From an uncultured Bacteroides sp. (GTDB lineage: Bacteria > Bacteroidota > Bacteroidia > Bacteroidales > Bacteroidaceae), in the NCBI GenBank assembly GCA_964554265.1, contig CAZKOB010000002.1, forward strand, positions 386 to 64,385: a stretch of DNA of 64,000 nt, read 5' to 3'. A model generated the notes under the pieces. It was not told the origin of the DNA. It ran no database searches and saw only the letters and a program-made list of their open reading frames with translations. The translations under genes and the position numbers were made by a program. Positions 599 through 58,406 of the stretch are shown piece by piece (the first letter of the stretch is position 1; every line of letters begins with the position of its first letter).

Positions 599-1900
599 TT
601 ATCTGCTCATAAGATAAGCTTTGAAGTCGGCAAACTCTTTGCTCATTTCGACACTTTGCTTTGTGCCCTGCATGAATGCGGCGAGTTTTGCAGGAATCTC
701 TACTTCTGAGCCTATAATCTTTTCCACTGTATCGCGGAATTTCGCAGGGTGTGCGGTTTCAAGGAACACACCGACCTCGTCTTCGCGCAGACCTTCTTCC
801 AATGCGCGGTAACCGCATGCACCGTGAGGATCGCACAAGTATCCTGTAGCCTCATATACATTGCTTATCGTATCGGCAATCTGGCTGTCTGTGTATGTTG
901 CGCCGCTGACGTCCTCGCATACGGCTTCATGGCTTCCTTTGTACAAATCGTATATGCGGGCGAAATTGCTCGGGTCGCCGACGTCCATTGCGTTTGCGAT
1001 AGTCTGTACCGACGGACGAGGACTGTATTGTCCGGTTTGCAGATATTTATAGAATATGTCGTTGGCATTGTTTGATGCGATGAACCGTTTCACTGGAAGT
1101 CCCATCTTCTTGCCGAACAGGCCGGATGTGATGTTGCCGAAATTGCCGGAAGGTACGCAGATGACGAGTTGGTCGGCAAGCCCCTTCTTTTTCATCTGTG
1201 CGTATGCATGGAAATAGTAGAAAGCCTGCGGAAGGAATCTTGCCACATTGATGGAGTTCGCCGAAGTAAGTTTCATGTGGCGATTCAGTTCTTCATCCAT
1301 GAATGCTGATTTCACCAGCGCTTGGCAGTCATCGAACACACCGTCTATTTCTAAGGCTGTGATGTTTTGTCCGAGTGTGGTAAACTGGCATTCTTGTATA
1401 GGGCTTACCTTGCCTTTCGGGTAAAGTACATATACGTGTATGCCGTCGACACCGAGGAAACCGTTGGCAACAGCTGAACCGGTGTCGCCTGATGTTGCCA
1501 CCAGCACATTGACTTGCTCGTTGCCTTCCTGCTTGATGAAGTACCCGAGCAGACGTGCCATGAATCGCGCGCCTACATCCTTGAACGCAAGAGTCGGTCC
1601 ATGAAAAAGTTCAAGGCTGTAGATGTTGTCTTTCACCTTTACCACCGGACAGTCGAATGCCAGCGTGTCGTAGACAATCTGCTTGAGTGTGTCCGCCGGA
1701 ACGTCTTCACCGAAGAATGCGTCTGCTACAGTGTATGCAATTTCCTGGAATGTCATGTTTTCGATATTGTCGAAAAACTCCTTTGGAAGCGCTTTGATTA
1801 CTTCCGGCATATACAGTCCCTTGTCTTCTGCCAGCCCTTTCACTACAGCTTTGTGTAGGTCGGCAACAGGAGCTTTTGAGTTCGTACTGTAAAATTTCAT
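599..1900 (-). CDS. thrC: Threonine synthase
   Basis: 433-aa ORF with clear threonine synthase character, including the PLP-lysine context HGPTLAFKD. It is the last gene of a thrA / PGM-like / thrC operon. Confidence 0.93.
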   Translation of the reverse strand: MKFYSTNSKAPVADLHKAVVKGLAEDKGLYMPEVIKALPKEFFDNIENMTFQEIAYTVADAFFGEDVPADTLKQIVYDTLAFDCPVVKVKDNIYSLELFHGPTLAFKDVGARFMARLLGYFIKQEGNEQVNVLVATSGDTGSAVANGFLGVDGIHVYVLYPKGKVSPIQECQFTTLGQNITALEIDGVFDDCQALVKSAFMDEELNRHMKLTSANSINVARFLPQAFYYFHAYAQMKKKGLADQLVICVPSGNFGNITSGLFGKKMGLPVKRFIASNNANDIFYKYLQTGQYSPRPSVQTIANAMDVGDPSNFARIYDLYKGSHEAVCEDVSGATYTDSQIADTISNVYEATGYLCDPHGACGYRALEEGLREDEVGVFLETAHPAKFRDTVEKIIGSEVEIPAKLAAFMQGTKQSVEMSKEFADFKAYLMSR

Positions 1901-1913
1901 ATCTTGTGTTATG

Positions 1914-3185
1914 TTAGTTTAATTCCATAAAAGCCTTCATAAATTCATCTTTCTTCAGATAGCCGTATCCGCCCTTTTGGCATGACTCTTCATCAAAAGT
2001 CTCCACTTCGTCCTGTTGTATGCCGGGACAATAGATAAGGAAAGGTACAGGCTCGTTGGTGTGTGTGCGTAGTTTTATGGGCGTCGGATGGTCTGGCAGG
2101 ACAGCAATGGCTATAGGCTCTGTGCTGACTTTGGATGCATCGCCGTCATTGTTCCGCATTTCCTCTTCCCATGCCTTGTTCACAGACTCTACATATTGCC
2201 ATATAGGACGTATGGCGCGATGGTCAAGGTTCTCTATCGTCTGAATCTTCAAGTCAAGTTTGCCGTCGTGTCCCGCTTCGTCGCTTGCTTCGATGTGCAG
2301 GTAAACGAAGTCGTCGGTCTTCAGAGCCTCGATAGCTGCTTGAGCTTTGCCTTCGTAATTGGTGTCGGCAAGTCCGGTTGCACCTTCAACGTCGACGCAT
2401 CTGAGTCCTGCATAATGTCCGATGCCTCGTATCAGGTCTACGGCTGTGATGACAGCGCCTCGTTTGATTTGAGGATAAGTCTCTGTCAGCGGAACCATGT
2501 CCGGACGGTATCCGCCGGCCCAGGGCCAGATGCTGTTGGCTGGGTCTTTCCCTTCTTTTATGCGCTGTTTGTTGAACGGATGTTCGGCCAGTAACAGCTG
2601 CGATTTCAGAATGAGTTCGTTGATGAGTTTGGCTGTATCTTCTGCTTCTGGCACTTCCGCTCTGACGAGCAGCGGTTGCCACGGTTGTCCGGGTACATCA
2701 TGAGGAGGGGTGCATGCCAGCCGCTTGTCGCCGCCTTTGATGACCAGCAGGTGGCGGTATTGCACGCCTGTATAGAAGTGTATGCGCTCATTGCCCAGAT
2801 GTTCTTGCAAATACTTGATAAGTATGTCGCCTTCTTCTGTCTTAAGATGTCCGGCGGAATGATTCTTGATACATCCGTTCTCGATACAAATCAGGTTGCA
2901 GCGTATGGCCATGTCGTCCGGTTCCAGTTCCACACCTATGCTTGCTGCCTCCAGTGGGCCTCGCCCTTCGTAGACGTGTGTCTGGTCATATCCGAGAATC
3001 GAGGAATTTGCCACTTCACTGCCCGGATGAAATCCTTCCGGAATGGTAGACAGCATGCCCGTTCTTCCCTTTTTTGCCAGCAGATTCATGTATGGAGTGT
3101 CTGCATACTGTAGCAATGTCTTGTTGCCGAGACTCTCGACCTTCCAGTCTGCCATCCCGTCGCCAAGTATGATTATGTGTTTCAT
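1914..3185 (-). CDS. Cofactor-independent phosphoglycerate mutase-family protein (archaeal ApgM-like), embedded in the thr operon
   Basis: 423-aa ORF with metalloenzyme-superfamily motifs: ILGDGMAD at the N-terminus and HIEASDEAGHDG. It lies 13 nt upstream of thrC and about 110 nt downstream of thrA. Confidence 0.85.
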   Translation of the reverse strand: MKHIIILGDGMADWKVESLGNKTLLQYADTPYMNLLAKKGRTGMLSTIPEGFHPGSEVANSSILGYDQTHVYEGRGPLEAASIGVELEPDDMAIRCNLICIENGCIKNHSAGHLKTEEGDILIKYLQEHLGNERIHFYTGVQYRHLLVIKGGDKRLACTPPHDVPGQPWQPLLVRAEVPEAEDTAKLINELILKSQLLLAEHPFNKQRIKEGKDPANSIWPWAGGYRPDMVPLTETYPQIKRGAVITAVDLIRGIGHYAGLRCVDVEGATGLADTNYEGKAQAAIEALKTDDFVYLHIEASDEAGHDGKLDLKIQTIENLDHRAIRPIWQYVESVNKAWEEEMRNNDGDASKVSTEPIAIAVLPDHPTPIKLRTHTNEPVPFLIYCPGIQQDEVETFDEESCQKGGYGYLKKDEFMKAFMELN

Positions 3186-3296
3186 CTTTACATACGTTTT
3201 ATAAGGAACGTAGAACCGACATCCGAAAACCGGTGTGCAGGTTTTCGGTTCCTTCCGGCCGGTTCCGGTCCTTGTTCTCTTTGACTTGCTGTTTAT

Positions 3297-5735
3297 TTAG
3301 ATGTTTGCGATACTCATGATGTCGGCAAAAACTCCGGCTGCCGTAACACTTGCACCGGCACCGTATCCTTGTATGAGCATAGGATACTCATGATAACGCT
3401 CTGTCGTGATGAGGATGATGTTGTTGCTTCCTTCAAGATCGTAGAAAGGATGGTGCTCATTCACTTCTTCCAGCGATACGGTGGCCTCTCCTGCATCGAG
3501 TTTGGCCACGAACCTCCAATGCTTGTTTTCTGCTTCAAGCACTTTGCGTCGTGCCTCAAAGCTGCTGTCGAGTTCCGGCAGTTTCTTCCAGAAGTCGTCC
3601 AATGAGCCTGCAAGCAGAGCATTCGGGATAAACAGATTCTTCTTCACGTCTTCCTGTTCTATTTTGTATCCTGCCTCGCGCGAAAGGATGACAAGTTTTC
3701 TTATCACATCTTTTCCGCTGAGGTCGATGCGTGGGTCCGGTTCAGAATATCCCTCTTCCTTGGCAAGACGTACCGTCTGGCTGAATGGAATTTCTGCGCT
3801 TATGGTATTGAATATGAAGTTGAGTGTTCCGCTCAATACGGCTTCCAGCTTTAAGATGCGGTCGCCGCTGTTCTTGAGGTCATTGATGGTGTTGATGATG
3901 GGCAGTCCTGCACCGACGTTTGTCTCAAACAGGAACTTTACTCCTCTTTTGCGTGCGGTGTCCTTGAGTCTGGCATAATTCTTGTATTCCGACGAGGCTG
4001 CCACTTTGTTCGCTGCCACTACGGATATGTTATGCTCAAAGAAGTCGCCATACAGCGCTGCCACTTCTGCACTTGCCGTACAGTCGACAAACACGGAGTT
4101 GAAGATGTTCATCCCTATCACCTCGTTCCTGAGTCTTTCGATATTGCTTGCTTCACTCTGTTTCAACTGTTCGCGATAGTTGGAGAGGTTGAGTCCCTCT
4201 CTGTTGAACATGGCATTGTGTCCGCTGGCTATCCCCACCACATTGAGCTGCAGTCCGCGTTCTTTTTTCAGTTTCTCACGCTGTCCTGCTATCTGGTCTA
4301 TCAAACTGCTGCCTACCGTTCCTACACCGCAGATAAAAAGGTTCAGCACTTGATATTCGGAGAGAAAAAAACTGTCGTGGATGACATTCAGGGTCTTTCT
4401 CAGAGATTTGCTTTCGACGACAAACGATATGTTGGTTTCCGAGGCGCCCTGTGCACAAGCTATGACGCTTATGCCGCTGCGTCCCAGTGTGCCGAACAGT
4501 TTGCCGGCTATGCCCGGAGTGTGCTTCATATTTTCACCTACCACTGCCACTGTGGCGAGGTTGCTTTCAAGCTTCATCCTGTACATGGCGCCCATCTCTA
4601 TCTCCTTGGCGAACTCTTTGTTCAGCACCTCGCAGGCCTGTTCTGCGTCTTCATTGCGCACACCGATGGAAGTGCTGTTCTCCGAGGATGCCTGGCTTAC
4701 CATGAATACGCTTATTCCGCAGTCTGCCAAGGCCGAGAATATGCGGCGGTTTACACCGATAACCCCGACCATCGACAAGCCGGAAACAGTGATGAGGCTG
4801 GTGTTGTTGATGGACGAGATGCCCTTGATGGCTCTGCTCTCGTCTCCGCATTCCTGTTGTATGATGCTTCCTTTTGCCTCCGGATGGAACGTGTTCTTTA
4901 TCAATATCGGTATGTTCTTCACGCATACGGGATATATTGTAGGCGGATACACCACCTTTGCGCCGAAGTTGCAAAGTTCCATCGCCTCCACGTAGGAAAG
5001 TCGGTCGATGGTGTATGCCGTGTTTATCACTCTCGGGTCGGCTGTCATGAATCCGTCCACATCGGTCCATATTTCAAGCACGTCTGCATCAAGGGCGGCA
5101 GCGATGATGCTTGCCGTGTAGTCGGAGCCGCCGCGTCCGAGATTGGTAATCTCTCCGCTCTGCATGTCCGTGGATATGAATCCGGGTACAAGCGCAACTT
5201 TCACGTCCTTGCCGAAATCCTTGAAAGCTCCGCATACAAGCGAATTGGTCAGTTCTGAATTGAGGAAATTGCTGCGCTGTTTCTTCTCCGTCTTGATGAA
5301 GGACAGGGAATCGAACCATTGGGCGCCTTCTATCAGAGATGCGACGATATTTGATGATATGCGTTCTCCATAACTGACGATAGCATTGGAGGTCTTTTCT
5401 GACAGGTCTCGAATCAGGTATACTCCTTGATAAATGCTCTTTAGGTCTGCAAGCAGCTTGTCTACGGTTGTGAGCAGAGCATTCTTCTTTGCCGGGTCGG
5501 GGATGATGGCGTCAATTATCTGGTGATGACGTTCTACCATCTCTGCATAGGCATTGAGGTACGAAGTGTCGCCCGACTGGGCCAGCTTCGATGTGCCGAT
5601 CAGCTTGTCGGTGATACCTCCGAGTGCGGAAACTACAACTACCACTGGTTCCTCGGCTGCCTCGACAATCTTCTTGACATTGAGAATACTCTCTACGGAA
5701 CCTACGGATGTTCCGCCAAACTTTAATACTTTCAT
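3297..5735 (-). CDS. thrA: Bifunctional aspartokinase / homoserine dehydrogenase
   Basis: Aspartokinase N-terminus KVLKFGGTSVG, a central ACT-like region, and a C-terminal homoserine dehydrogenase with a GVGTVG dinucleotide loop. The ORF opens at 5786, but the ATG at 5735 (MKVLKFGG) fits the family N-terminus. Confidence 0.93.
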   Translation of the reverse strand: MKVLKFGGTSVGSVESILNVKKIVEAAEEPVVVVVSALGGITDKLIGTSKLAQSGDTSYLNAYAEMVERHHQIIDAIIPDPAKKNALLTTVDKLLADLKSIYQGVYLIRDLSEKTSNAIVSYGERISSNIVASLIEGAQWFDSLSFIKTEKKQRSNFLNSELTNSLVCGAFKDFGKDVKVALVPGFISTDMQSGEITNLGRGGSDYTASIIAAALDADVLEIWTDVDGFMTADPRVINTAYTIDRLSYVEAMELCNFGAKVVYPPTIYPVCVKNIPILIKNTFHPEAKGSIIQQECGDESRAIKGISSINNTSLITVSGLSMVGVIGVNRRIFSALADCGISVFMVSQASSENSTSIGVRNEDAEQACEVLNKEFAKEIEMGAMYRMKLESNLATVAVVGENMKHTPGIAGKLFGTLGRSGISVIACAQGASETNISFVVESKSLRKTLNVIHDSFFLSEYQVLNLFICGVGTVGSSLIDQIAGQREKLKKERGLQLNVVGIASGHNAMFNREGLNLSNYREQLKQSEASNIERLRNEVIGMNIFNSVFVDCTASAEVAALYGDFFEHNISVVAANKVAASSEYKNYARLKDTARKRGVKFLFETNVGAGLPIINTINDLKNSGDRILKLEAVLSGTLNFIFNTISAEIPFSQTVRLAKEEGYSEPDPRIDLSGKDVIRKLVILSREAGYKIEQEDVKKNLFIPNALLAGSLDDFWKKLPELDSSFEARRKVLEAENKHWRFVAKLDAGEATVSLEEVNEHHPFYDLEGSNNIILITTERYHEYPMLIQGYGAGASVTAAGVFADIMSIANI

Positions 5736-6117
5736 TGCGCTGGTTTGTTTTTTTTGTGTTTTGCCTGTCACAGGATATGCAGACATATCCGTACAGCTTC
5801 CCCCCCTACAGGGTTTGTATTTTTTTTGTAAATAAAAATCCGGATTCTGCCGGCTAACTCATGACCTTGTTAGCCGTTGGTTAGGAATCATGAATATATA
5901 CACCATCTGCTCAACCCCTAAGGGTCATGCCCTTGGCTGCTGTTGTCTCCGTACAAGTCCAAATACGGCTGAAGTCGGTATGAAGTGTATATATGTTCAT
6001 TTGTATGATAGCAAATTTCTTAAAATCGCTGCAAATTTAGAACTTTTTGAAGAATAAACAAACGAAATATGACTTTTTTAGATGCAGAAATACGGAGGTT
6101 TGGTAATCACAGTGTTA

Positions 6118-8121
6118 CTAAGCCGGGTCTACGTCGTAGTGGATGTTCAGTCCGTTGGCCGAAGGTTGCTTCAGTGTCTGTTCTTTTATGGCACGCAGTA
6201 TGGACCGCACCTTGCTGACGGAGGCGCCGGATTCAATCTTGATGACTATTTTCCGGATGAACAGCGACTGCACGCGGCTTACCGGAGGGCGGTCAGGGCC
6301 TAATATGCGGTCGCCGAATGCTGATCTGAGCATCGAGGCCATCGACTGCGAGAGGGTCTCCAACGTGTCGTTGTTCTTGTGGCGCAGGTATGCATAGATG
6401 AGGCGGTGGAACGGAGGGTAACGGAATAAGCTGCGTTCTTGCATTTGTGATGTGTACATGGCTGTGTAGTCGTTGCTGACCACCTGAGCGATAATGTCGC
6501 TTTCGGCGCTCCGTGTCTGCAAAACTACCTTGCCTTTGTGGTGTTTCCTGCCGGCGCGTCCGGCCACCTGCGACAGTATGTGGAATGTGCGTTCGTAGCT
6601 GCGGAAGTCCGGCTGGTTGAGCATGGTGTCGGCATCGAGAATGCCCACCACACTGACGTTGTCGAAGTCCAGTCCTTTTGACACCATTTGAGTGCCGATG
6701 AGGATGTCGCTCTTGTGTGCGGCAAAGTCGCCGATGATGCGTTCGTATGCTGTGCGTGTGCGCGCCGTGTCGAGGTCGAGACGCAAAATGCTTGCGTCCG
6801 GAAACAGGTCCTTTATCTGGTCTTCTACACGCTCTGTCCCTACGCCGACAGCTGAAAAATCTGCCTCTTCGCAGTTGGGGCATTTGGGGGGCAGGGTATA
6901 GGTGTGGCCGCAATAATGGCATGAAAGCATCCCCGTGCCCTTGTGGTAGGTGAGGCTTACATCGCAGTGCTCGCAGCGCGGAACCCATCCGCATGTGTGG
7001 CATTCTATGAATGGGGAGTATCCGCGCCGGTTCTGAAACAGAATCACTTGTTCGTGCTTGCCGAGGGCTTCTTCTATGGCATCGACAAGTGTCTGTGAGA
7101 ATGCGCCCTTCATCCGCTTCTGGTGTCTCAGCCGCTTGATGTCTACAACGTTGATTTCCGGCAGCTGTATGTCGTTGTATCTTTGTGTGAGCCGTACATA
7201 ACCGTAACGTCCGTTCTGTGCGTTGTGGTAAGTCTCGATGCTTGGAGTGGCAGTGCCGAGAAGTGTCTTTGCCCCATATTGGCGCGCGAGCATGATAGCC
7301 GCACTGCGTGCGTGGTAACGCGGTGCCGGGTCTTGCTGCTTGTACGATGTCTCGTGTTCTTCGTCCACAATTACAAGACCAAGATTCTTGAAAGGGAGGA
7401 ATACGGACGAACGCACCCCGAGGATGAGGCTGTAGGGGGTGTCGGAAAGCTGGCGGCTGTATACCTCCACACGTGCGCCGTCGGCAAATTTTGAATGGTA
7501 TACTCCGAGTTTGTCACCGAACACTTTCCGCAGCCGCTCCGTTATCTGGGTGGTGAGCGCAATTTCCGGAAGCAGGTACAACACTTGTTTCCCTTCTTCT
7601 ATGTATTTGTTGATAAGATGTATGTACACTTCCGTCTTTCCGCTCGACGTCACTCCGTGAAGCAGAGCGATGTCTTTTTCTGCAAAACACCGTCTTATCT
7701 CGTCGAAAGCCGTGAGTTGTGCTGCGTTCAGCACATTCTTCAAACCCTCCGCCTCCGGACGTATGCTTTCCGCCTTTCTTTTCCTGACACCCTCTTTCTT
7801 TTGAGGTGTTTTCATGCCGGCTGGCATGGCTGCGTTGTAGACATCTCCGAGAGGACAGATATAGTAATCGGACACCCATTTCCAGAATGCCAGTTGCCGG
7901 TCGCTGACTATCGGCGTGGCATCTGTAGTCTCGCAGATGTCTTTGGTGGAAATTCCCGTGGGGGCCTGGTCGTGTACACGGAGCACGATGCCTGTATACA
8001 GCTTTTTCTTCCCGAACGGTACAACCACTCTGCACCCTCTCCTTACTGTGTTTTCCATTTCTTTTGGGATGGAATAGGTGAAGTTTTCAAACGGAATGGG
8101 GAGTATTATATCTGCGTACAT
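6118..8121 (-). CDS. priA: Primosomal replication restart helicase PriA
   Basis: Walker A GVTSSGKTEVY, a DEEH box (VIVDEEHE), and a cysteine-rich zinc module (CHTCGW..CEHCD..CHYCGH..CPNC). The ORF opens at 8169; the ATG at 8121 (MYADIILPIP) fits the family N-terminus. Confidence 0.93.
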   Translation of the reverse strand: MYADIILPIPFENFTYSIPKEMENTVRRGCRVVVPFGKKKLYTGIVLRVHDQAPTGISTKDICETTDATPIVSDRQLAFWKWVSDYYICPLGDVYNAAMPAGMKTPQKKEGVRKRKAESIRPEAEGLKNVLNAAQLTAFDEIRRCFAEKDIALLHGVTSSGKTEVYIHLINKYIEEGKQVLYLLPEIALTTQITERLRKVFGDKLGVYHSKFADGARVEVYSRQLSDTPYSLILGVRSSVFLPFKNLGLVIVDEEHETSYKQQDPAPRYHARSAAIMLARQYGAKTLLGTATPSIETYHNAQNGRYGYVRLTQRYNDIQLPEINVVDIKRLRHQKRMKGAFSQTLVDAIEEALGKHEQVILFQNRRGYSPFIECHTCGWVPRCEHCDVSLTYHKGTGMLSCHYCGHTYTLPPKCPNCEEADFSAVGVGTERVEDQIKDLFPDASILRLDLDTARTRTAYERIIGDFAAHKSDILIGTQMVSKGLDFDNVSVVGILDADTMLNQPDFRSYERTFHILSQVAGRAGRKHHKGKVVLQTRSAESDIIAQVVSNDYTAMYTSQMQERSLFRYPPFHRLIYAYLRHKNNDTLETLSQSMASMLRSAFGDRILGPDRPPVSRVQSLFIRKIVIKIESGASVSKVRSILRAIKEQTLKQPSANGLNIHYDVDPA

Positions 8122-8319: not shown

Positions 8320-8756
8320 TTAAGGTGGTGTATTCGCAGGGGTTTCTCGTGGATTTTGATGGGCTTTAAACTGATGTATCCACGAGAAGAGTCTGTGAGT
8401 ACACAAGCAAAGGCAACTGTCTTTCTTATGAGCGTTTCTTCTTTCTTTTTGACACAAAATCCACCCGTTGCAGACAGAACCTTATTAACACAATTAAGAT
8501 TCGTTTACATTCTTCGGATTGCCAAGTTTTTAAATATTTATTGATAAGTAATTAATAATCAATAAGATACTATTTTGATAAAACTATGCGGTTTTAGATG
8601 CAAGAAGTACAGGTTGGAACAAAAATAGGATATGCTGATAATCAGTAAGTTATAAAAATTCTTGTCCAAGATTTCTGTTTTCCGCCACCAAAACCTATCT
8701 TTGTTTTTCGTGACATTGAAAAATCCGATTTCAGTTTTTTTAAGAAATTCATTTGG
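8320..8756 (+). repeat. Interspersed repeat, copy B. Only the left-hand part is present, and it breaks off abruptly at about 8756.
   Basis: Contains ttcttctttctttttgacac (8438-8455), ttattaacacaattaagattcgtttacat, tgataatcaataag, agatgcaagaagtacaggttgg, aaaataggatatgctgataatcag and ctatctttgtttttcgtgacattgaaaaatc. Homology to other copies stops after taagaaattcatttg. The left boundary is approximate. Confidence 0.85.
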
Positions 8757-9472
8757 ACAATACTGAGCAGCGACAGCTCCATCTGCAGCACCTCGCTCTT
8801 GGTGGTGGTGCCCAGGGCGAGGCGTCGCTGAGCCATCTGGTGCAGCGACTCGCGGTCGGATAGTGTCGAGACGCTCTGCCTGTAGTCGGACTGCGCCGAG
8901 AGCACTCCGAAGAACAGCGACGTGGTGTGTATGGCGATGTCCTGCATGGATGCCATGTATGCCCGCTGCGCCACTTCATACTCTATGGGTGCCGTCTTCT
9001 TCTCCCACTTCAGCGCGTTGAATGCCCTCAACGGCTGGGTGTAGCTGATGCGCATGGGCTGCGAATTGTAGGTCCTCTCCTTGTAGGTGAACTGCTCGAG
9101 TCGATACAGATACGACTGAAGAGAAACTGTACCTCCAGTTGCTGCTATCTTCTGATCCACCGACAGGGTGAGGCTGTTGGAGAGCGAATTGTTGTTTACA
9201 TACGCCACCTTGCCATCCTCGTAGTTGCGCGCCTCCACTATGGAGTGGTCGAAGTTCATCAGCCCGCCACTGAGGTTGATTGATGGTAGCAACTCAGCTT
9301 TGAATGACCGATAAGTCCAGTAGCTTGCCATGAAAGAGTAGCGTGCTAGTGACGCATCGTATGAATTCTGTTGGGCAATGCGAATGGCATTTGCTAATGA
9401 TAATTCTTGCGCTTCGGCATAACCTATAGATGTCACTAAGGAGATTATTGCAATGAAATACTTCATAATCAT
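8757..9472 (-). pseudogene. TolC-family outer membrane efflux protein; 5' fragment only
   Basis: Signal peptide MIMKYFIAIISLVTSIGYAEAQ, followed by about 238 aa of TolC-like sequence (ELSLANAIRIAQQNS..., ..RRLALGTTTKSEVLQMELSLL). The reading frame then runs into repeat copy B, adding about 38 unrelated residues before a stop at 8642. Family members are usually well over 400 aa. Confidence 0.8.
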
Positions 9473-9916
9473 AAAATTCCGGAAAGTCAGAACGGAACAG
9501 AATGCTATCTTCAGCCATCGCTTCTATGCGTTGTCTTAAAGTATTGCTATCTATAGAATGTCCATTTAATATATAACCTTTGAAAGGTTGGTAATTTTTC
9601 AAAGATAAAGTAAATGTTTTTTTCGATTGACAATAAATTATAGTGGTTTTATGTCTTTTTTTACAAATTATCTGAGAATTGTATAAGAATGTCTGATGCT
9701 TGTCATGCGTAGATTCCCAAGCCATGATGTTTAATAAATATTAAAATCTTTAGTTTGCATACTTTTGTGTCTTCAAAATCGAGCCAACAATACTTTTCTG
9801 TCGTATTAAATTCCCTGCACTGATTATCAAGAAGTACTACAAATTTGGAATGACTGAACCGGAAATATAAAAACACTCTTTTGAAAAATCAAAATCACCG
9901 TATTGTTTTTTGTAAT

Positions 9917-9994
9917 CAGCACTGCTGATTATAAAAACTGCACTGCTGATTTTATAATCTGCACTGCTGATTTTACAATCGGCAGTGCAGATTT
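9917..9994 (+). repeat. Four 21-bp-phased repeats with core c(a/t/g)gca(c/g)tgc(t/a)gatt
   Basis: Units start at 9917, 9938, 9959 and 9980. The first sits inside the 17-bp near-palindrome aatcagcactgctgatt (9914-9930). Units 2 and 3 are identical (ctgcactgctgatttta). Confidence 0.8.
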
Positions 9995-10462
9995 AAGAAA
10001 TAAGTGCGGTGAAAACTACTTTCCTGTGGAGTGAAATTAAATTTCTTCAGTCTGTAATGTAATGATTCTCAATGTTCTACAGGAAAAGAAAAGTTTGCGG
10101 CGGAGGAATCTGTGAGAACAACAGCTAAGAAACCATCCGACTCACGAGACGAGTCTGTAAATACACCGGTAAAATGATCTCTATTGTATATGGGAAACCG
10201 TTTTGCGCCCTATGGCAGGTACTTCCGTAAAAATGCTACATTCTTGGAGTGACTTTGTGCAATCAGCTCTTTGGCCTGCGGATTCAAATACTCTCAAAAT
10301 CGGCAGAAAACTTAGTTTTCTCCTTATTCTGTCATAAAAAAAACTATCATTGTTGGTGAAAAGAGATTTTTCAGTAACTTTGCAGCTATTACATGCGGAC
10401 TGCTGCAACAAGTTATACTGCTAATCAGAAATCTAAATATATAATTTTTATATCTTAAATAT

Positions 10463-14604: not shown

Positions 14605-15417
14605 AGAACTCTTAGAGACATTTCTTCTTTCTTTTTGACACTAAGTCCACCTATCGCGGATGGAATCTTTTTAACACAATTAAGGTTCATTTGCATTTGA
14701 ATGATTGCTGATTTCTTGATAATTTGTAGATAAATGATTGATAATCAAAAAAATACTATTTGGGTAGAACGGTGCAGTTTTAGATGCAAGAAGTACAGGT
14801 TGGGACAAAAATAGGAAATGTTGATAATCAACAAGTTATGAAATTATTCATCCAAAAATCCTGTTTTTCGTCGCCGGAATCTATCTTTGTTTTTCGTGGC
14901 ATTGAAAAATCCGATTTAAACTTTTTAAGAATTTAATTTGTGCAGCACCAAATTTCTGTCCGAAAAACGGACGTTTTCAAACTCGTGCACCTTGAAAATA
15001 AATTTCGTTCACCTTGAAAAAATTTTTAAAGCGCCTTTTAAACAAATTTGGTGCACCTTGAAAATTTATTTTCAGCGTACTCTTTTTTCAGACGATGCAC
15101 ACGCGAATGTGAATAAATGTATCTTTTCGGAGCGAAAATTGTATTGTTTTCACATTTGAATTTCAAGGCCTGAAAATGGCCTCAGAATCGCAAAAATGGA
15201 ACTTCGGTAAGGTTCGGCCGATTTTAAGCGATTCTACGGGCTTTGAATTTTAACATTTCAGATTGTCAGAAAAAGTCCGTAATTTATGACAAATAGATGG
15301 TATGGAGTGGAGATGACCAAACTGATTTATGAAGACCTTAGAACTCATGAAAAGACATCAAAGAAAACGCGAGAATCTTCGATGAGAATGTTTTGGTGAC
15401 ACGATGCCGAAGTCAGG
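14605..15417 (+). repeat. Interspersed repeat, copy C. The core is present but the left-hand module is missing.
   Basis: Runs from the ttcttctttctttttgacac block (about 14621) to ggtgacacgatgccgaagtcagg (ends at 15417). Its internal three-repeat segment is in the direct-repeat configuration. Confidence 0.9.
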
Positions 15418-15471
15418 AAATACGACTTGTGAAGAAGCTCATATCCGTGCCTTTTGTATGGATTGGGAATC

Positions 15472-20735: not shown

Positions 20736-20780
20736 CATCCGGCCATGCAAAATATCGGTTGCATGGCCGGATGTGTTTAT
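20736..20780 (+). terminator. Rho-independent terminator after the fucosidase gene
   Basis: catccggccatgcaa / ttgcatggccggatg form a 15-bp stem, followed by tgtttat. Confidence 0.7.
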
Positions 20781-20781
20781 G

Positions 20782-21600
20782 AACAGTTCTTCTTTCTTTT
20801 TGACAATAACTCCACCTGCCGCAAACGAAACTTTATTAACATAATTAAGATTCGTTTACATTCTGCCAATAGCCGAATTTGGGATGTTTTGTTGATAAAT
20901 AATTGATAATCAGTAAAATGCTGTTTCAGCAAAACGATGCGGTTTCAGGTGCAAAAGGTATAGGTGGAAACAAAAATAGGATGTGTTGATAATCAGCAGG
21001 TTATAGAATTATTTATCTAAAACCCTTGTTTTTCGTTGCCGGAATCCATCTTTGTTTTTCGTGGCATTGAAAAATCTGATTTAGACTTTTTAAGAAATTA
21101 ATTTGTGCAACACCGGATTTCAGCCCGAAAAACGGACGTTCTCAACTTCGTTCACCTTGAAAATAAATTTCGTTCATCTTGAAAATGTTTTTAAAGTGCC
21201 TTTTAAACAAATTTTGTTCACCTTGAAAATTTATTTTCAGCGTACTCTTTTTTCAGGCAAAGCATAAGCAAATGTAAATTAATGTATCTTTTCAGGCAGT
21301 AAATTATATTATTTTTACATTTGAGATTCAAGGCCCGAAAACGGCCTTAGAATCGCGTAAATGGAACTTCGGTAAGGTTTGGGCGATTTTATGCGATTCT
21401 GCGAGGCTTGGATTTTAACATTTCAGATTGTCAAAAAAAAGCCCGGAATTTATGACAAGTTGATAGTATATGACGGTGGGGGAAATCAAGCTGATTGATG
21501 AAGACATCAGCCTTGTTGCAGTGTGATGGCCGGACTGATAAACGAGGTCTATATCTTGGCAAATTCATTCTTTTTTAGTATTTTTGCGGAAACTGAATAT
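20782..21600 (+). repeat. Interspersed repeat, copy D. The core is present, with the alternative right-end module.
   Basis: Starts at the ttcttctttctttttgacaat block. Its internal segment is in the direct-repeat configuration. The right end (...ccttgttgcagtgtgatggccggactgataaacgaggtctatatct...aaactgaatat) matches copy E rather than A, C, F, H or I. Confidence 0.88.
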
Positions 21601-24741: not shown

Positions 24742-25977
24742 TACGCGAGTTCAGTTTAAATTTCCGGTTAAAAAAGGTTCCGGTTGCCCTTGCATTCTTC
24801 AATATGTATCTGCCGTGCCTCCGGCTTGTTGCTGAAAAGGGAATACGCCGTAAGTGTGGTGTAGATGTTCGCAAGGATGTTTGCAGTTGTTTTTTGCCGG
24901 TGGGGTTATAGATGACTCTTGTGATGCTTATGGTTGTAAGTGGTTGTATTCACAGACTCCTCCGTCGCTTCGCGCCACCTCCCCTAACTTAGGGGAGGAG
25001 CCTGGTTACTCAGTGGGTGTAAATGCTATCATGTTATCAACCAGCAAGTTGGCTTACAGTTGGCTTTTCAGCGAGCAAGGTAACTAAGCTCCTCCCCTAA
25101 GTTAGGGGAGGTGGCGCGAAGCGACGGAGGAGTCTGTGAAGACAACAGCAAAAACAGCTGACTTTCTTATAGACTTTTCTTCTTTCTTTTTGACACTAAC
25201 TCCACCTGTCGCAGACGGAACTTTATTAACATATTTAAGGTTCATTTACATTCAGCCAATAGCCGAAATTCCGAAGTTTTATTGATAAATGATTGATAAT
25301 CAATAAAATACTATTTTAGCAAGATGATGCAGTTTTAGGTGCAAGAAGCACAGGTTGTAACAAAATAGGATATATTGATAATCAGCGAGTTATGAAATTT
25401 CTTACCCAAGATTCTTGTTTTTCGCCGCCAAAATCCATCTTTGTTTTTCGTGGCATTGAAAAATACGATTTAATCTTTTTAAGAAATAAATTTGCACAAC
25501 ACCTGATTTCAGCCCGAAAAACGGACGTTTTCAAACTCGTTCACCCTGAAAATAAATTTTGTGCGCCTTGAAAAATTTTTTACAAGGCACTTTAAAACTA
25601 TTTTCAAGGTGAATGAAATTTATTTCCAGCGTACTCTTTTTACGGGCGATTCACGCACAAATGTGAATAAATGTATCTTTTCAAAACAAAAATTACATTA
25701 TTTTTACATTCTCGGTTCAAGGCCCGAAAACGGCCTCAGAATCGCGCAAATGGAACTTTGGTAAGGTTTGGCCGATTTTATGCGATTCTACGGAGCCTTG
25801 AATTTTAACATTTCAAATTGTCAAAAAAAACTTGAATTTTATGACAAACAGACGGTGTGACGGTGGGGATGACCAAGCCGGTTTATGAGGATGTCTGCCC
25901 TGTTGCAGCCTGACAGTCGGACTGACAAATAAGGTCTATATCTGCACTGATTCGTCGCTTAAAACCGAACTTGCGTA
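24742..25977 (+). repeat. Interspersed repeat, copy E. Full length, with terminal inverted repeats and the nested short-arm palindrome.
   Basis: The left end tacgcgagttcagtttaaa (24742-24760) is an imperfect inverted copy of the right end cttaaaaccgaacttgcgta (25958-25977). All internal blocks are present. It carries the alternative right-end module shared with copy D. Confidence 0.88.
24951..25138. repeat. Nested palindromic module in copy E
   Basis: Left arm 24951-25001 (cacagactcctccgtcgcttcgcgccacctcccctaacttaggggaggagc) is the exact reverse complement of right arm 25088-25138. The loop is 86 nt. Confidence 0.95.
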
Positions 25978-43039: not shown

Positions 43040-44247
43040 TACGCGGGTTCGGTTTAAGAAAGTCCTGTAAAAGTTGGTAAGTAGGTGTTTTTACAGATGA
43101 CTATAGCTTGTGTTTTTGGGGGATTTTCGCAGATGTATTCACAGATGACTCTTATAATTCTTATGGTTATAAGCAGGTGTATTCACAGACTCCTCCGTCG
43201 CTTCGCGCCACGCCCTCCGTCGCAAGCTCCCCAATTGCTCCTATTCCGCAATTGCCCCTAACTTAGGGGAGGAGCCTGGTTTCCTTGTTCGCTGGAATAT
43301 CAATGATAGGTTAATATGTTGAATATCATTGGCGCGAAGCGACGGAGGAGTCTGTGAAGGCACCTGCAAAAACAACTGACTTTCTCAGAAACATTTCTTC
43401 TTTCTTTTTGTCACAAAAACTACTCGTTGCGGACGGAATCTTATTAACATAATTAAGATTTGTTTATATTTACTCAACCGTCTAAATTTTGATATTTCAT
43501 AGATAAACGATTGATAATCAATAAAATACTATTTTAGCAAAACAGTGCAGTTTTAGGTACAAGAAGTACAGGTTGTGACAAAAATAGGATACACTGATAA
43601 TCAGTAAGTTATGAAAATACCTGGCTGAGATTCCTGTTTTCTGCTACCAAAATCCATCTTTGTTTTTCGTGGCATTGAAAAATGTGATTTAGACTTTTTA
43701 AGAAAGTAATTTGTGCAACACCGGATTTCAACCCGAAAAACGGACTATCTCAAACTCGTTCACCTTGAAAATAAATTTCGTTCACCTTGCAATTTTTTTT
43801 ACAAGGCATTTTAAAACCTTTTTCAAGGTGAACGAAATAAATTTTCAGCGTACTCTTTTTTCAGGCGAGGCACACACGAATGTGAATAAATGTATCTTTT
43901 CAGAATGTGAATTATATTATTTTTACATTTGGGGTTCAAGGCTTGAAAACGGCCTTAGAATCGCGTAAATGGAACTTCAGTAAGGTTCGGTCGATTTTAT
44001 GCGATTCTACGAGTCTTGAATTTTAACATTTCAAATTGTCAAAAAAAGTCCGTAATTTATGACAAATGGATAGCGGAGATGAGACAACCACACTGATTTA
44101 CGAGAACATTGGGGCACATGAAAAGGCATCAAAGAACAGCGAAACTCTTCGATGAGAATTTTGGGGCGACACGATGACGAAGTCAGGGTGCATAAACATG
44201 CAAGATTACCAACTTTTTATAGGACCTTCTTAAATCGAATTCGCGTA
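43040..44247 (+). repeat. Interspersed repeat, copy F. Full length, with terminal inverted repeats and a nested long-arm palindrome whose right arm is truncated.
   Basis: Left end tacgcgggttcggtttaagaaagtcc (43040-43065) against right end ggaccttcttaaatcgaattcgcgta (44222-44247): 22 of 26 positions are complementary. All internal blocks are present, including ggcgacacgatgacgaagtcagg, which ends at 44187. Confidence 0.88.
43184..43356. repeat. Nested palindromic module in copy F (long left arm, truncated right arm)
   Basis: The left arm cacagactcctccgtcgcttcgcgccacgccctccgtcgcaagctccccaattgctcctattccgcaattgcccctaacttaggggaggagc matches the copy I arms. Only ggcgcgaagcgacggaggagtctgtg remains of the right arm. 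Confidence 0.85.
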
Positions 44248-44418: not shown

Positions 44419-45012
44419 ATGGCGGAAACTAAAAAAATCAAGACTGCGCTGGTATCTGTCTATCATAAGGACGGATTGGACGAATTGTTGGCAGAACTTC
44501 ACAAGAATGGAGTGGAGTTCATATCGACAGGTGGTACACAGAGCTTCATAGAGAGCCTCGGCTATGAATGCCGTAAAGTCGAGGAACTTACAACATATCC
44601 TTCTATTTTGGGTGGGCGTGTAAAGACGTTGCATCCGAAAGTCTTTGGCGGCATACTTGGTCGTCGTGGACTTGAAAGCGACTGTGCCGAAATGGCTAAG
44701 TATGAAATTCCTGAGATAGACCTTGTGATTGTCGACCTTTATCCTTTTGAAGAGACGGTGGCAAGTACAAATGATGAGGCTGCTATTATAGAGAAAATAG
44801 ATATAGGCGGAATTTCTCTTATACGCGCCGGAGCAAAGAATTTCAACGATGTCGTAATCATTCCGAGTAAAGCGGAATACACTCCGCTTCTTGACCTTAT
44901 AAAGGCTCAGGGTGCGGAGACAACCAAAGAGCAGCGCAAGTGGTTTGCAATGAAAGCTTTTGGTGTAAGTTCGCATTACGATACTGCGATTCACGCATAT
45001 TTTCAGAAATAA
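44419..45012 (+). CDS. PurH N-terminal (MGS-like / IMP cyclohydrolase) domain only. It is either a stand-alone protein or a truncated purH.
   Basis: 197 aa starting KTALVSVYHKDGL, with STGGT and VDLYPFEETV, all typical of the PurH N-terminal domain. The stop at 45010-45012 falls at the domain boundary, and no AICAR transformylase domain lies in the 186 nt before mreB. Confidence 0.8.
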   Translation: MAETKKIKTALVSVYHKDGLDELLAELHKNGVEFISTGGTQSFIESLGYECRKVEELTTYPSILGGRVKTLHPKVFGGILGRRGLESDCAEMAKYEIPEIDLVIVDLYPFEETVASTNDEAAIIEKIDIGGISLIRAGAKNFNDVVIIPSKAEYTPLLDLIKAQGAETTKEQRKWFAMKAFGVSSHYDTAIHAYFQK

Positions 45013-51389: not shown

Positions 51390-52390
51390 TTTACGGTCAA
51401 TCGTTCTCGTCGAAGATTCTCGCTGTTCTCTGATGCCTTTTCATGGGCCCTGACGTCCTCATCAATCAGTTTGGTTATTCCATTCCACTATCTATTTGTC
51501 ATAAATCATGGGTTTTTCTTGATAATTTGAAATGTTAAAATTCAAGGCTCGCAGAATCGCATAAAATCGGCCGGACCTTACCAAAGTTCCATTTGCGCAA
51601 TTCTGAGGCTGTTTTCAGACTTTTAGCCCCAAGTGTAAAAATAATATAATTTGCATTCCGAAAAGATACATTTATTCACATTCGCGCGTGCATCGCCTGA
51701 AAAAAGAGTACGCTGGAAATAAATTTCGTTCACCTTGAAAATAGTTTTAAAGTGCCTTGTAAAAAATTTTTCAAGGTGAACGAATTTTATTTTCAAGGTG
51801 AACGAGTTCGAAAATGTCCGTTTTTCGGGCTGAAATAGGGTTTGACTAAATTTGATTTCTTAAAAAATCTGAATTGGATTTTTCAATGCCACGAAAAACA
51901 AAGACGGGTTTTGGCGACGAAAAACAGGAATTTTGGGCAAGATTTTTTTATAACTTATTGATTGTCAACATATTCTATTTTATCCCGACCCGTATTTCTT
52001 GCATCTGAAACCGCATTGTTTTGCTGAAATAGTATTTTACTGATTATCAATTGCTTATCTGTGAAATGTCAAAATTTAGACAGTTGATTAAGTGTAAATT
52101 AGTCTTAATTATGTTAATAAAGTCCCGTCAGTTAAAAGTGAACTTAGTGTCAAAAAGAAAGAAGAAATGTTCATAAGAAAATCAGCTGTTTTTGCTGTTG
52201 TATTCACAGACTCCTACTTTAAATCATCAATTTTACAAAAGTCGCCCGTGGAAACACCAGCTCACAACCATAAGAATCACAAGAATCATCCATGAATCCC
52301 CCGGCAACACACACAACCGATTCACTTTTTGAATCGATTTTCGCGTATCACCCAAAACCGCAGACATTAGAATTACAATCTATTAATATT
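51390..52390 (-). repeat. Interspersed repeat, copy G (reverse orientation). It includes the left-hand module, but the palindrome is reduced to a stub.
   Basis: The reverse complement carries every core block (e.g. gtgtcaaaaagaaagaagaa at about 52148-52167, ccgaaaagatacatttattcacatt, gaatcgcataaaatcggcc). Both boundaries are approximate to within a few tens of nt. Confidence 0.85.
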
Positions 52391-53376: not shown

Positions 53377-53392
53377 AGAAAGGGCTGCGAGT

Positions 53393-58279: not shown

Positions 58280-58406
58280 CACAAAAACGCAGAAAAACAA
58301 ACGGACAGAATATCAAAAACAAGGAAACAGATTCTAAAAAAAACGGAAGCATAGATTCCGCTATACTTCCGACAATTAATCATTTTGAAGAAAAACACGA
58401 ACCGTG

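Follow-up and report, generated by a model that had tools for sequence, protein, structure and literature searches.

The long palindromes at the edges of a large non-coding repeat in the 64-kb stretch of DNA analysed here (the window) are built from a ~47-nt unit, U, which is a free-standing module: in many bacteria it lies singly, in tandem or as inverted pairs between unrelated genes. The palindromes are probably inverted dimers of U with a spacer, similar to REP dimers, BIMEs or REPINs, that are lodged in a hairpin of outer motifs at the 5' edge of the large repeat. As the core of U is found unchanged in unrelated bacteria, they look like an element of the REP type in its own right and not like an oddity of the large repeat. 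The element has the grammar of CGTC-tagged REPs, yet it fails the published definitions of those families.

Anatomy of the palindromes

The large repeat, ~0.9 kb in length, occurs in nine copies that occupy about 12% of the window. The palindromes at its edge are real, with an anatomy far beyond chance, and are found in copies E, F and I.

1-455: large-repeat copy A
8389-8760: large-repeat copy B
14610-15420: large-repeat copy C
20770-21556: large-repeat copy D
24878-25943, plus strand: large-repeat copy E (non-coding), the context of the E palindrome
43111-44190: large-repeat copy F
51404-52215, minus strand: large-repeat copy G
57372-58284, plus strand: large-repeat copy H
60724-61854, minus strand: large-repeat copy I
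24943-25146, no strand assigned: palindrome of copy E; perfect arms 24951-25001 and 25088-25138, which the outer motif extends to 24943 and 25146; loop 25002-25087
43184-43356, no strand assigned: shortened palindrome of copy F; long left arm 43184-43274 (extra module 43212-43254), loop 43275-43329, right-arm remnant 43330-43356
61528-61799, no strand assigned: palindrome of copy I; arms 61528-61620 and 61709-61799, loop 61621-61708, an extra module in each arm (about 61556-61598 and its complement)

An earlier note on this DNA had described a perfect 51-bp inverted repeat around an 86-nt loop in copy E, arms lengthened by an inner segment in copy I, and a long left arm facing a short right remnant in copy F, and this description holds with minor changes in length. 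The perfect core of the E palindrome consists of 51-nt arms (24951-25001 and 25088-25138) around an 86-nt loop, within an inverted repeat of 67 nt at 96% identity (24943-25009 and 25080-25146); folded as single-stranded DNA, it reaches -89 kcal/mol (z = -19.4). The arms of copy I measure ~92 nt (previously ~90), including an extra inner module of 43 nt (previously ~44), and enclose a loop of 88 nt, with a fold of -146 kcal/mol (z = -28). In copy F the right remnant is 27 nt long (previously 26), and the 55-nt loop is both flipped and shortened. The long arms of F and I also contain a second, partial U-like head (CCCTCCGTCGC-AAG-CTCCCC) and a CAATTG hairpin, inserted after GCGCCAC.

The unit U and its conservation in the window

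Each palindrome arm corresponds to U, CCTCCGTC-GCTTCGCGC-CA-CCTCCCC-loop-GGGGAGG, in which a C-rich strand (CCTCCGTC) is followed by a CGTC-headed mini-hairpin (GCTTCGCGC), the dinucleotide CA and a second hairpin, CCTCCCC-loop-GGGGAGG. With an nhmmer profile made from metagenome copies, the only matches in the window are the six arms of E, F and I, at three intergenic sites. The CGTC head is present in all six of these units as well as in the family profile.

24955-25001, plus strand: U, left arm of E, CTCCTCCGTC-GCTTCGCGC-CA-CCTCCCC-TAACTTA-GGGGAGGAGC (E = 1e-10)
25088-25134, minus strand: U, right arm of E, the inverted copy (E = 8e-11)

The outer 28 nt and the inner 21 nt of the arms are identical across E, F and I, whereas identity outside the arms is 75-82% in the loops, 60-75% in the 60 nt upstream and 80-81% in the 400 nt downstream. 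Such identity of the arms next to diverged loops and flanks points to sequence-specific selection, because neutral drift or selection for pairing only would permit changes in the arms. We infer from this pattern that U is probably under selection for its sequence itself, beyond pairing.

Conserved stems between genes could also act as RNA. A transcribed, perfect stem of 51-92 bp, placed between the large repeat and the gene upstream of it, might serve as an RNase III site, as an insulator or terminator of transcripts, or as a stabiliser of mRNA. The palindromes of F and I do lie 150-260 nt past a stop codon and upstream of the repeat body (after yqeY, which ends at 42923, and after the minus-strand gene at 61959-63206), one strand of U is very rich in C and poor in G, and according to the literature (PMC3733652) most REPs follow coding regions and are often assumed to work at the RNA level. 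However, the E palindrome sits between divergently oriented genes, no T-run follows the stem, the solitary copies of U that were examined lack a consistent orientation to their neighbours, and the stems are conserved by sequence and not through compensatory change. Rfam likewise offers no match, and an RNA-level element is therefore considered unlikely. At the gathering threshold Rfam returned nothing in the window, and a permissive setting gave generic hairpins only, all below threshold, with weak matches to miRNA precursors in the window region. In a Reyranella locus (L003) the permissive search gave 35 bits to a Burkholderia sRNA (gathering score 46), located upstream of U and not overlapping it. 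A tRNA/tmRNA scan found neither.

U in other bacteria

Copies outside the window were gathered by exact matching of a 19-mer core, CTCCGTCGCTTCGCGCCAC, so that conservation within that stretch is biased upwards. Among the matches listed, the 19-mer occurs in more than 120 metagenome contigs with a G+C content of 29-73%, and a 30-base core recurs without change in unrelated soil, water and gut bacteria. Conservation extends beyond the search pattern: CCC precedes the 19-mer in 87-90% and CTCCCC follows it in 77-93%, after which come a variable loop and GGGGAGG. A hairpin of at least 6 bp stands directly after the core in 116 of 122 scorable occurrences, and about 100 of these stems begin with CT(C/T)CCC. 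Variants at 82-88% identity are found in Sphingomonas, Chelatococcus, a Hyphomicrobiales isolate and Vescimonas, and a species of Bacillota carries the U core as an 86% variant; cultured carriers include Sphingomonas parapaucimobilis and Vescimonas fastidiosa.

The arrangement of these copies varies. By a rough census of 109 copies, 42 have an inverted partner upstream, 16 have one downstream and four have one on both sides; five are in tandem and 42 are solitary. Judging by a crude ORF scan, whose results are noisy for contigs of high G+C, metagenome copies are mostly intergenic. In the partner arms, the segment from CGTC to (G)CCA forms a mini-hairpin with a covarying stem (TGGC/GCCA, AGGC/GCCT, AGCGC/GCGCT, AGCCC/GGGCT, ACGC/GCGT, CGGCGC/GCGCCG) of 4-6 bp that starts with A or T in 29 of 31 sequence types; the extraction pattern itself contained the flanks GACGG and TGG(C), so that only the hairpin between them counts as an independent observation.

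No recurrent family of neighbouring genes emerged when all ORFs of 120 aa or more lying up to 3 kb from U, or those of 55-170 aa up to 1.5 kb away, were clustered. U is absent from phage records and from 5,426 E. coli genomes, and a search of IMG/VR found it in one GC-rich contig only. A search of the paper library by sequence and by possible spurious peptide translations yielded no relevant paper and no description of U.

A closer comparison is provided by the metagenome-assembled genome JAMPEL01. Although this genome is labelled 'Roseburia', its integrase, which has a Phage_int_SAM_5 domain, and the large repeat family that it has in common with the window both suggest that it is related to the window's organism and is not Roseburia. 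Its loci contain at least 16 units of U, in heterodimers of which just one arm has the extra module, in one-armed truncations and with loops in both orientations. In four loci the same palindromes as in the window adjoin a diverged copy of the large repeat, at its opposite end. At another (L002) the palindrome has no adjoining repeat body, the nearest copies being about 1.7 kb off, and no large repeat was detected within the 8-kb loci of L008 and of both sites of L010.

These observations bear on the simplest alternative, namely that the palindrome is a mere diverging hairpin internal to the large repeat, with no separate existence. All six units in the window do lie at large-repeat edges, and the independence of U therefore rests on other genomes. 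There, the alphaproteobacterial and Bacillota replicons that carry U are without the large repeat, and in JAMPEL01 the palindrome stands at the opposite repeat end or away from any adjoining repeat; within the window, conservation of the arms far exceeds that of the surrounding repeat. The internal hairpin is thus already contradicted and hardly credible. The suggestion that the palindrome is a module apart from the large repeat is borne out by the JAMPEL01 palindromes that lack the repeat and by the arm unit in many unrelated genomes lacking it.

Loop orientation

The E loop matches the reverse complement of the plus-strand loop of I at 72 of 88 positions, and the F loop matches the plus-strand loop of I at 41 of 55 positions and poorly the other way. 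The F loop is therefore flipped relative to the large repeat, and the earlier proposal that the loop has inverted in at least one lineage stands, in the sense that its orientation differs between paralogous copies of the window (F versus E and I). Further support comes from JAMPEL01, where L002 and L008 share short left and long right arms, an internal reference, but hold their loops in opposite orientations. All flips were seen between paralogous copies that are ~20% diverged, and they fit recombination between the arms.

Inverted repeats around a segment that is found in both orientations, in the window and in two other lineages, could be read as a programmed switch, in which expression is altered when a site-specific recombinase inverts the loop that the arms enclose. 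A tyrosine recombinase does lie about 190 nt from a palindrome in JAMPEL01 (L010). Nevertheless, the differences are between ~20%-diverged paralogs and not between alleles, no recombinase or invertase is encoded in the 64-kb window, the loops lack the Bacteroidetes -7 promoter motif TAnnTTTG, and the downstream genes have promoter-like motifs of their own, beyond the large repeat. Typical invertase sites are also much shorter than arms of 50-90 nt. An inverton is very improbable on these grounds, and a dedicated inversion switch appears unnecessary.

Both loop orientations relative to the large repeat might also arise with no inversion at all if the palindromes were classical MITEs, that is, deletion derivatives of a DDE insertion sequence with long terminal inverted repeats that insert either way. 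This is improbable, since whole-element re-insertion cannot produce the flip of the loop relative to arm asymmetry that distinguishes L002 from L008. Long inverted termini, small size, freedom from ORFs and presence in several copies are as a MITE would have them. Against it, none of E, F and I has a visible target-site duplication, a related transposase is absent near about 130 copies, and U also occurs singly and in tandem, unlike the terminal repeats of MITEs.

With the palindromes taken as inverted dimers of U, the variety of copies, whether full, one-armed, reduced to a stub or with a flipped loop, would be what the decay and rearrangement of a long inverted repeat are expected to yield. 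Hairpins or slippage would give rise to deletions, and the spacer would invert through recombination or template switching between the arms. With a spacer of 86-88 nt, cruciform formation in duplex DNA is doubtful, and single-strand hairpins are more plausible.

Comparison with known repeat families

Like REPs, BIMEs and REPINs, U is a short palindromic intergenic repeat that occurs as singletons, spaced inverted dimers and clusters. As in REPINs and BIMEs, two inverted units and a spacer form a long hairpin, and the element is non-autonomous, intergenic and mosaic or modular. The REPs linked to RAYT, by contrast, are headed by GTAG, belong to particular lineages and pass mainly by vertical descent; the head of U is CGTC, U spans phyla, and the window has no RAYT.

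Close to U in structure are the CGTC-tagged REPs of Di Nocera, De Gregorio and Rocco (2013), which consist of a CGTC tag, a stem-loop whose 4-5-nt loop closes a stem of 8-9 bp beginning with A-T pairs, and a CCA tail. They include the Neisseria dRS3/NTS and Rickettsia RPE-4/6 repeats, are found mainly in Alphaproteobacteria and also in Bacteroidetes, and have no known dedicated transposase (PMC3733652). U shares with them the unpaired CGTC head, the stem-loop and the CCA tail (CGTC-GCTTCGCGC-CA in U), the intergenic location, and the occurrence as singletons and as head-to-head or tail-to-tail homo- and heterodimers with spacers of 20-100 nt. By the stem definition, however, U is not a CGTC-tagged REP: its mini-hairpin has 3-6 bp, and the canonical stem is GC...GC, starting with G and not with A-T. 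Further, the CGTC module of U sits between a C-rich strand (CCCCTC) and the second conserved hairpin CCTCCCC...GGGGAGG, which the described families do not have, and its 30-nt core is invariant across very different genomes.

Repeats of the NTS type (dRS3/CGTC-1) are bound and cut as single-stranded DNA by Ssn nucleases, and the taxa enriched in Ssn and its SRM target sites include Sphingomonas (PMC11893778). U shares the grammar of CGTC, hairpin and C with these targets, and the GIY-YIG nuclease Ssn would offer a mechanism that reads both sequence and structure on single-stranded DNA. Unlike NTS, however, neither U, its partner arms nor the Sphingomonas variant satisfies the SRM pattern HGTCWYN(0-2)YYVSBRHN(0-5)WNVSBRGN(0-2)RNCYNB, which has no match in the window and which the NTS control passes, and no cd10448 GIY-YIG gene was seen near the copies in a crude motif scan.

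The ERIC/IRU, Correia/NEMIS and pneumococcal BOX elements are likewise long, imperfect palindromes in which internal segments are optional, and both complete and truncated versions exist. To our knowledge none of these is related to U in sequence, and each is confined to single genera or families.

A putative reader of U

The likeliest reason for the constancy of U would be that its sequence is read by a protein encoded elsewhere in the genome, acting on folded single-stranded DNA. Candidate readers are an HUH transposase of the RAYT type or a small GIY-YIG nuclease of the Ssn type. No RAYT, GIY-YIG, transposase or recombinase gene lies beside U in the window or the fetched loci, except the tyrosine recombinase of L010, and the crude motif scan, which took in every ORF of the window and of about 140 loci, detected no GIY-YIG protein. 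An 88-aa ORF that adjoins a Sphingomonas copy has no match in Pfam.

Repeats of the REP type are normally lineage-specific; the U core is common to Bacteroidales-like gut bacteria, Alphaproteobacteria and, as the 86% variant, a Bacillota species. A 30-nt core that is identical in the first two groups and 86% identical in the third implies either a shared reader protein or repeated horizontal spread, and either would give a handle on how such repeats arise and persist. A broader proposal, tentative and on balance doubtful, is that U could be an undescribed cross-phylum DNA/RNA module with a ~30-nt invariant core (CCCTCCGTCGCTTCGCGCCACCTCCCC) and a G-rich closing strand, kept at 29%-73% G+C because a widespread putative protein reads it, possibly a new specificity class of single-stranded DNA nuclease or transposase whose logic resembles that of Ssn or RAYT. 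On this view the Bacteroidales palindromes would represent the module's expanded homodimeric form, and copies of U would mark places where single-stranded DNA is cut, recombination occurs or islands insert. The recent discovery that sequence-specific nucleases act on CGTC-type repeats as single-stranded DNA offers a concrete candidate mechanism, and a new pair of nuclease and site, if there is one, could become a new tool for single-stranded DNA.

Outer motif, stubs and the large repeat

Allowing up to three mismatches, the outer motif GGAGTCTGTGAATAC is matched 16 times in the window, compared with 1.5 expected by chance; the matches include those at 8388, 10105, 10150 and 61834. Reduced forms of the palindrome region and extra copies of the motif lie at the following sites.

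8327-8402, plus strand: copy B, outer motifs around an unrelated hairpin with an 11-bp stem (8344-8354 and 8378-8388)
52200-52257, minus strand: relic in copy G, outer motif 52200-52215, 24-nt AT-rich filler and degenerate partner 52240-52257; U absent
57422-57449, plus strand: stub in copy H, TTCACAGAATCCTCCAATTTGTGAATAC, with outer motifs TTCACAGAATCCTCC and AATTTGTGAATAC only and no sequence between them
61834-61848, plus strand: extra outer-motif copy within a 44-45-nt unit upstream of the copy I palindrome
43135-43149, 10105-10119 and 10150-10164: similar extra outer-motif copies

The earlier note had also taken copies G and H for stubs, copy B for the site of an unrelated short hairpin, and C and D for copies without the region. 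These assignments agree with the present coordinates, the relic in G comprising the motif and a degenerate partner, and the palindrome region is absent from C and D. Its 'orphan' outer motifs exist as motif copies (8388, 10150 and 61834); they belong to 44-45-nt units located at the repeat's 5' end and are not orphans of the GC-rich arm. If the element is mobile, the loop of the CACAGA...TCTGTG stub would be a candidate insertion target.

The large repeat contains a conserved inverted repeat of its own, AGAATCGCG...CGCGATTCT, which was considered as a structured RNA and rejected: its stem is invariant, so that covariation evidence is nil. A conserved 27-mer of the large repeat had no match in IMG/VR. 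A look-up with the OMP gene adjoining E found no record, and look-ups for orthologous loci with MreB and YqeY returned only short-read contigs; the public contigs with these genes stop inside repeat copies F and G or a little way short of them. Since the element marks the edges of the large repeat and public contigs break there, knowledge of its structure should aid assembly and the analysis of rearrangements. The spans between neighbouring large repeats correspond to the sizes of public short-read contigs.

Palindromes in copies of the large repeat

Long palindromes in three copies (E, F and I) of a large non-coding repeat were found to be a modular palindromic repeat that is built from a ~47-nt unit (U), is independent of the large repeat and occurs in REP-like arrangements. 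The large repeat (~0.8-1.1 kb) has nine intergenic copies in both orientations, which are 63-90% identical and make up ~12% of the window's housekeeping region:

1-455, large repeat copy A
8389-8760, large repeat copy B
14610-15420, large repeat copy C
20770-21556, large repeat copy D
24878-25943, large repeat copy E
43111-44190, large repeat copy F
51404-52215, minus strand, large repeat copy G
57372-58284, plus strand, large repeat copy H
60724-61854, large repeat copy I

All factual statements of an earlier note on the palindromes were borne out by re-examination. Copy E holds a 67-nt inverted repeat (96% identity) with the described perfect 51-nt core and 86-nt loop, and the long arms of copy I reach ~92 nt through an extra 43-nt module in each. 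Copy F has a long left arm, a 55-nt loop and a right arm reduced to a 27-nt remnant. Among the reduced copies, H is a stub only and G a degenerate relic; in B the same outer motifs, which flank the palindrome at the edge of the large repeat, enclose an unrelated 11-bp hairpin, and the region is absent from C and D. This variety may reflect ordinary palindrome decay, with central or one-arm deletions leaving stubs.

The outer motif GGAGTCTGTGAATAC is strongly over-represented in the window (16 matches against 1.5 expected). Its extra copies are no orphans of the GC-rich arm, however: they sit in a 44-45-nt unit found at the large repeat's 5' end, and this unit is a small CACAGA...TCTTGTG hairpin in its own right.

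Folded as single-stranded DNA, the palindromes of E, I and F reach -89, -146 and -61 kcal/mol, respectively (z = -19, -28 and -11 relative to shuffled sequences). Spacers of 86-88 nt make it unlikely that duplex DNA extrudes a cruciform, and hairpins would more plausibly form in the lagging-strand template or in RNA. Rival readings of the palindrome include an RNA-level insulator or processing site and a classical MITE.

Composition and conservation of U

Each arm contains one U, with the layout (C)CCTCCGTC - GCTTCGCGC - CA - CCTCCCC - short loop - GGGGAGG(AG). In the long arms of F and I, extra material is inserted 3' of GCGCCAC and comprises a partial second U-like head (GCCCTCCGTCGC-AAG-CTCCCC), then a CAATTG...CAATTG hairpin. 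An arm-profile search of the window found no U beyond the six arms of E, F and I.

These arms are identical in their outer 28 and inner 21 nt, as opposed to 75-82% identity in the loops, 60-75% in the upstream 60 nt and 80-81% in the downstream 400 nt. Recent spread of the whole palindrome does not fit, because the loops would then be identical too; neither does a constraint on pairing only, because compensatory arm changes would then be allowed. The contrast between identical arms and diverged loops and flanks points instead to selection or repeated correction acting on the arm sequence itself.

Occurrence of U outside the source genome

In a scan of a genome collection, a 22-mer of the arm matched the MAG JAMPEL01 (labelled Roseburia) at eight loci, another MAG at one contig end and, with 30-nt identity, a Reyranella contig (alphaproteobacterial, 67% G+C). 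A metagenome scan with the 19-mer CTCCGTCGCTTCGCGCCAC gave >120 contigs among the matches listed (29-73% G+C), from many projects, animal-associated ones included (e.g. a giraffe co-assembly); IMG/VR gave one contig. About 20 of these >120 listed matches look like chance or coding matches. The other listed matches share features that were not in the query, namely CCC before the 19-mer (87-90%), CTCCCC after it (77-93%) and, 3' of CTCCCC, a variable loop followed by GGGGAGG. Conservation within the 19-mer itself is overstated, because all these copies were gathered with the exact 19-mer, and the independent evidence comes from flanks, partner arms and BLAST variants only. The latter are 82-88% U variants in Sphingomonas parapaucimobilis, Chelatococcus sp. 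CO-6, a Hyphomicrobiales isolate and Vescimonas fastidiosa (Bacillota), and sit on megaplasmids or secondary replicons. The sequence of U appears to be under constraint. U was absent from the phage records and E. coli searched, and was not found in Rfam or the paper library, where absence is no proof that it has never been described.

Copies of U lie between unrelated housekeeping genes, and a comparison of their neighbours revealed no recurrent gene family. Single copies, 46-nt tandem arrays and inverted pairs of both possible arrangements are all seen. In metagenome contigs of ~51-53% G+C, head-to-tail arrays of 46-nt U units CCCTCTCCGTCGCTTCGCGCCACCTCTCCCnnAGGGCGAGGCCnA are located between convergent genes (L numbers denote loci retrieved outside the window):

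L048, 1618-1710, head-to-tail U array
L105, 1634-1770, head-to-tail U array
L108/L128, head-to-tail U arrays

JAMPEL01 harbours a diverged version of the same large repeat (~72% identity), and its palindromes uphold the earlier suggestion of a separate module. At four loci (L001, L004, L005 and L007), the palindrome abuts the large repeat at the end opposite to its position in the window. At L002 there is no adjoining repeat body, the nearest copies being ~1.7 kb off, and none was detected within the 8-kb loci at L008 and two L010 sites. L002 and L008 carry the extra module on one arm only, and L010 1-172 is a one-armed truncation. The reading of the palindrome as a mere internal hairpin of the large repeat is contradicted by the presence of U in the >120 listed metagenome contigs, in the BLAST replicon variants and in JAMPEL01 without an adjoining repeat.

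Relation to CGTC-tagged REPs and SRM

CGTC-tagged REPs (Di Nocera et al.) consist of a CGTC head, a stem-loop and a CCA tail, form head-to-head and tail-to-tail homo- and heterodimers with 20-100-nt spacers, and are found mainly in Alphaproteobacteria and also in Bacteroidetes, with no dedicated transposase known (PMC3733652). U shares the CGTC head / stem-loop / CCA layout but has stems of 3-6 bp rather than 8-9 bp, and its canonical stem lacks the AT start. In sphingomonad-type dimers, one arm has the invariant GCTTCGCGC and the other, at the same site between CGTC and (G)CCA, a covarying mini-hairpin stem (e.g. TGGC/GCCA, AGGC/GCCT, AGCGC/GCGCT, AGCCC/GGGCT, ACGC/GCGT, CGGCGC/GCGCCG); 29 of the 31 partner-arm types begin with A or T. 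A perfect mini-stem is regained by U variants in two ways, GGCGC-TTC-GCGCC in Vescimonas and GTCGC-TTT-GCGAC at L001 of JAMPEL01. In Vescimonas fastidiosa, a classic CGTC-type REP (L139 2560-2625; on the other strand GTCATTGC-...-GCAATCC) lies ~30 nt from a U variant, and the two kinds of repeat thus co-occur.

Repeats with the CGTC-REP layout (NTS, or more broadly SRM) are bound and cut by small GIY-YIG Ssn nucleases, which act on ssDNA only and recognise both sequence and structure (PMC11893778). The SRM search pattern matches an NTS control but neither U, nor its partner arms, nor any part of the window. With its short stems, non-AT start and this failed pattern, U falls outside the published family definitions. 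U would work like the CGTC REP and SRM families, yet membership is not established. A trans-acting protein may read the folded single-stranded U, candidates being an Ssn-type GIY-YIG nuclease or a HUH/RAYT-type enzyme (cf. Quentin et al.).

Inversion of the loop

The loop of E is the reverse complement of the plus-strand loop of I at 72/88 positions, so both have the same orientation relative to the large repeat. The loop of F matches the plus-strand loop of I at 41/55 positions and is flipped, as the earlier note had proposed. Similarly, L002 and L008 share their short-left/long-right arms but differ in loop orientation (alignment score 25.5 reversed versus -3.5 forward), and therefore imply inversion between the perfect 19-21-nt inner repeats on either side of the loop or an equivalent inter-arm module transfer. 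Re-insertion of the whole element was rejected as the cause, since it cannot give the same arms with opposite loops. In the sphingomonad class, likewise, GGACACGGAAC stands at the loop's 5' end in L024 and L025, and most others have its complement at the 3' end. Loop flipping is thus a recurrent property of the U palindrome family, and could proceed via recombination or template switching between the arms.

A programmed inverton is a further rival reading. Every loop flip seen is a fixed difference between diverged copies; no recombinase was found in the window and no TAnnTTTG motif in the palindrome loops. For the genes that follow the large repeats, TAnnTTTG motifs of their own lie past the repeat.

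Between two palindromes of L010 (1-172, truncated, and 6839-6997; loops opposite by eye), the intervening span 837-6655 encodes a 1369-aa coiled-coil/SMC-like protein and a tyrosine recombinase (Phage_int_SAM_5 + Phage_integrase, 5573-6655). This stretch may be an island inserted at the palindrome.

Genomic setting and further features of the large repeat

Housekeeping DNA from a Bacteroidota-type chromosome (~44% G+C) makes up the window, which carries the thr operon, priA, etfAB, an acyl-CoA dehydrogenase, a fucosidase, a mraZ-mraW-ftsL-ftsI-mur-fts cluster with FtsL of the Bacteroidetes-type family, an IMP cyclohydrolase-like gene, mreBC, pbp2, rodA, a superoxide dismutase, asnB and TonB genes. 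The 169-aa ORF next after mreBC had no Pfam match and may be mreD. The purH-like gene (44419-45012) encodes 197 aa only, with an MGS-like domain and the start of an AICARFT/IMPCHase domain; it is not an assembly error, because the same ORF is present in several independent assemblies. Public short-read contigs with the window's genes stop inside or shortly ahead of copies F and G, and their sizes match the spans between neighbouring large repeats.

Within the large repeat, C (14983-15065) and D (21150-21237) each have four direct copies of the 22-nt iteron-like unit GTTCACCTTGAAAATAAATTTC; elsewhere (E 25535-25617; equivalents in A, F, G, H and I) it occurs as two direct and one inverted copy around a ~30-nt spacer, a second inversion-type difference among the copies. 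An invariant 9-bp inverted repeat, AGAATCGCG...CGCGATTCT, with halves ~37 nt apart and followed by TTGAATTTTAACATTTCAAATTGTCA (25706-25831 and equivalents in all copies), is kept between the window and JAMPEL01 (L001, L004, L005, L007); TACATTTG precedes it in three copies (D, F and I). Its stem showed no covariation across copies, so that a protein site and an RNA stem are equally possible.

Copies H (57466-58174) and I (60799-61507) are inverted relative to each other over 709 nt (83% identity) and enclose a 2.6-kb segment, which from this layout could invert. Inside this segment are the gene for a 442-aa protein that has three TonB_C domains (58407-59735) and another TonB_C gene, which is frameshifted (59829-60354). 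Between copies G and H, an AAA_15/AAA_21 ATPase is followed by a DUF4435 protein (52546-54484), a pair that probably corresponds to the PARIS (AriA/AriB) anti-phage defence system. Copy B ends prematurely at ~8760, where it is overlapped by an outer-membrane efflux (OEP/TolC-like) ORF of 276 aa only (8642-9472), probably a gene fragment or rearrangement junction. Finally, a 21-nt sequence, AATCTGCACTGCTGATTTTAC, is tandemly repeated about four times at 9908-9994 in a gene-poor stretch that also has two relic outer motifs, at 10105 and 10150.
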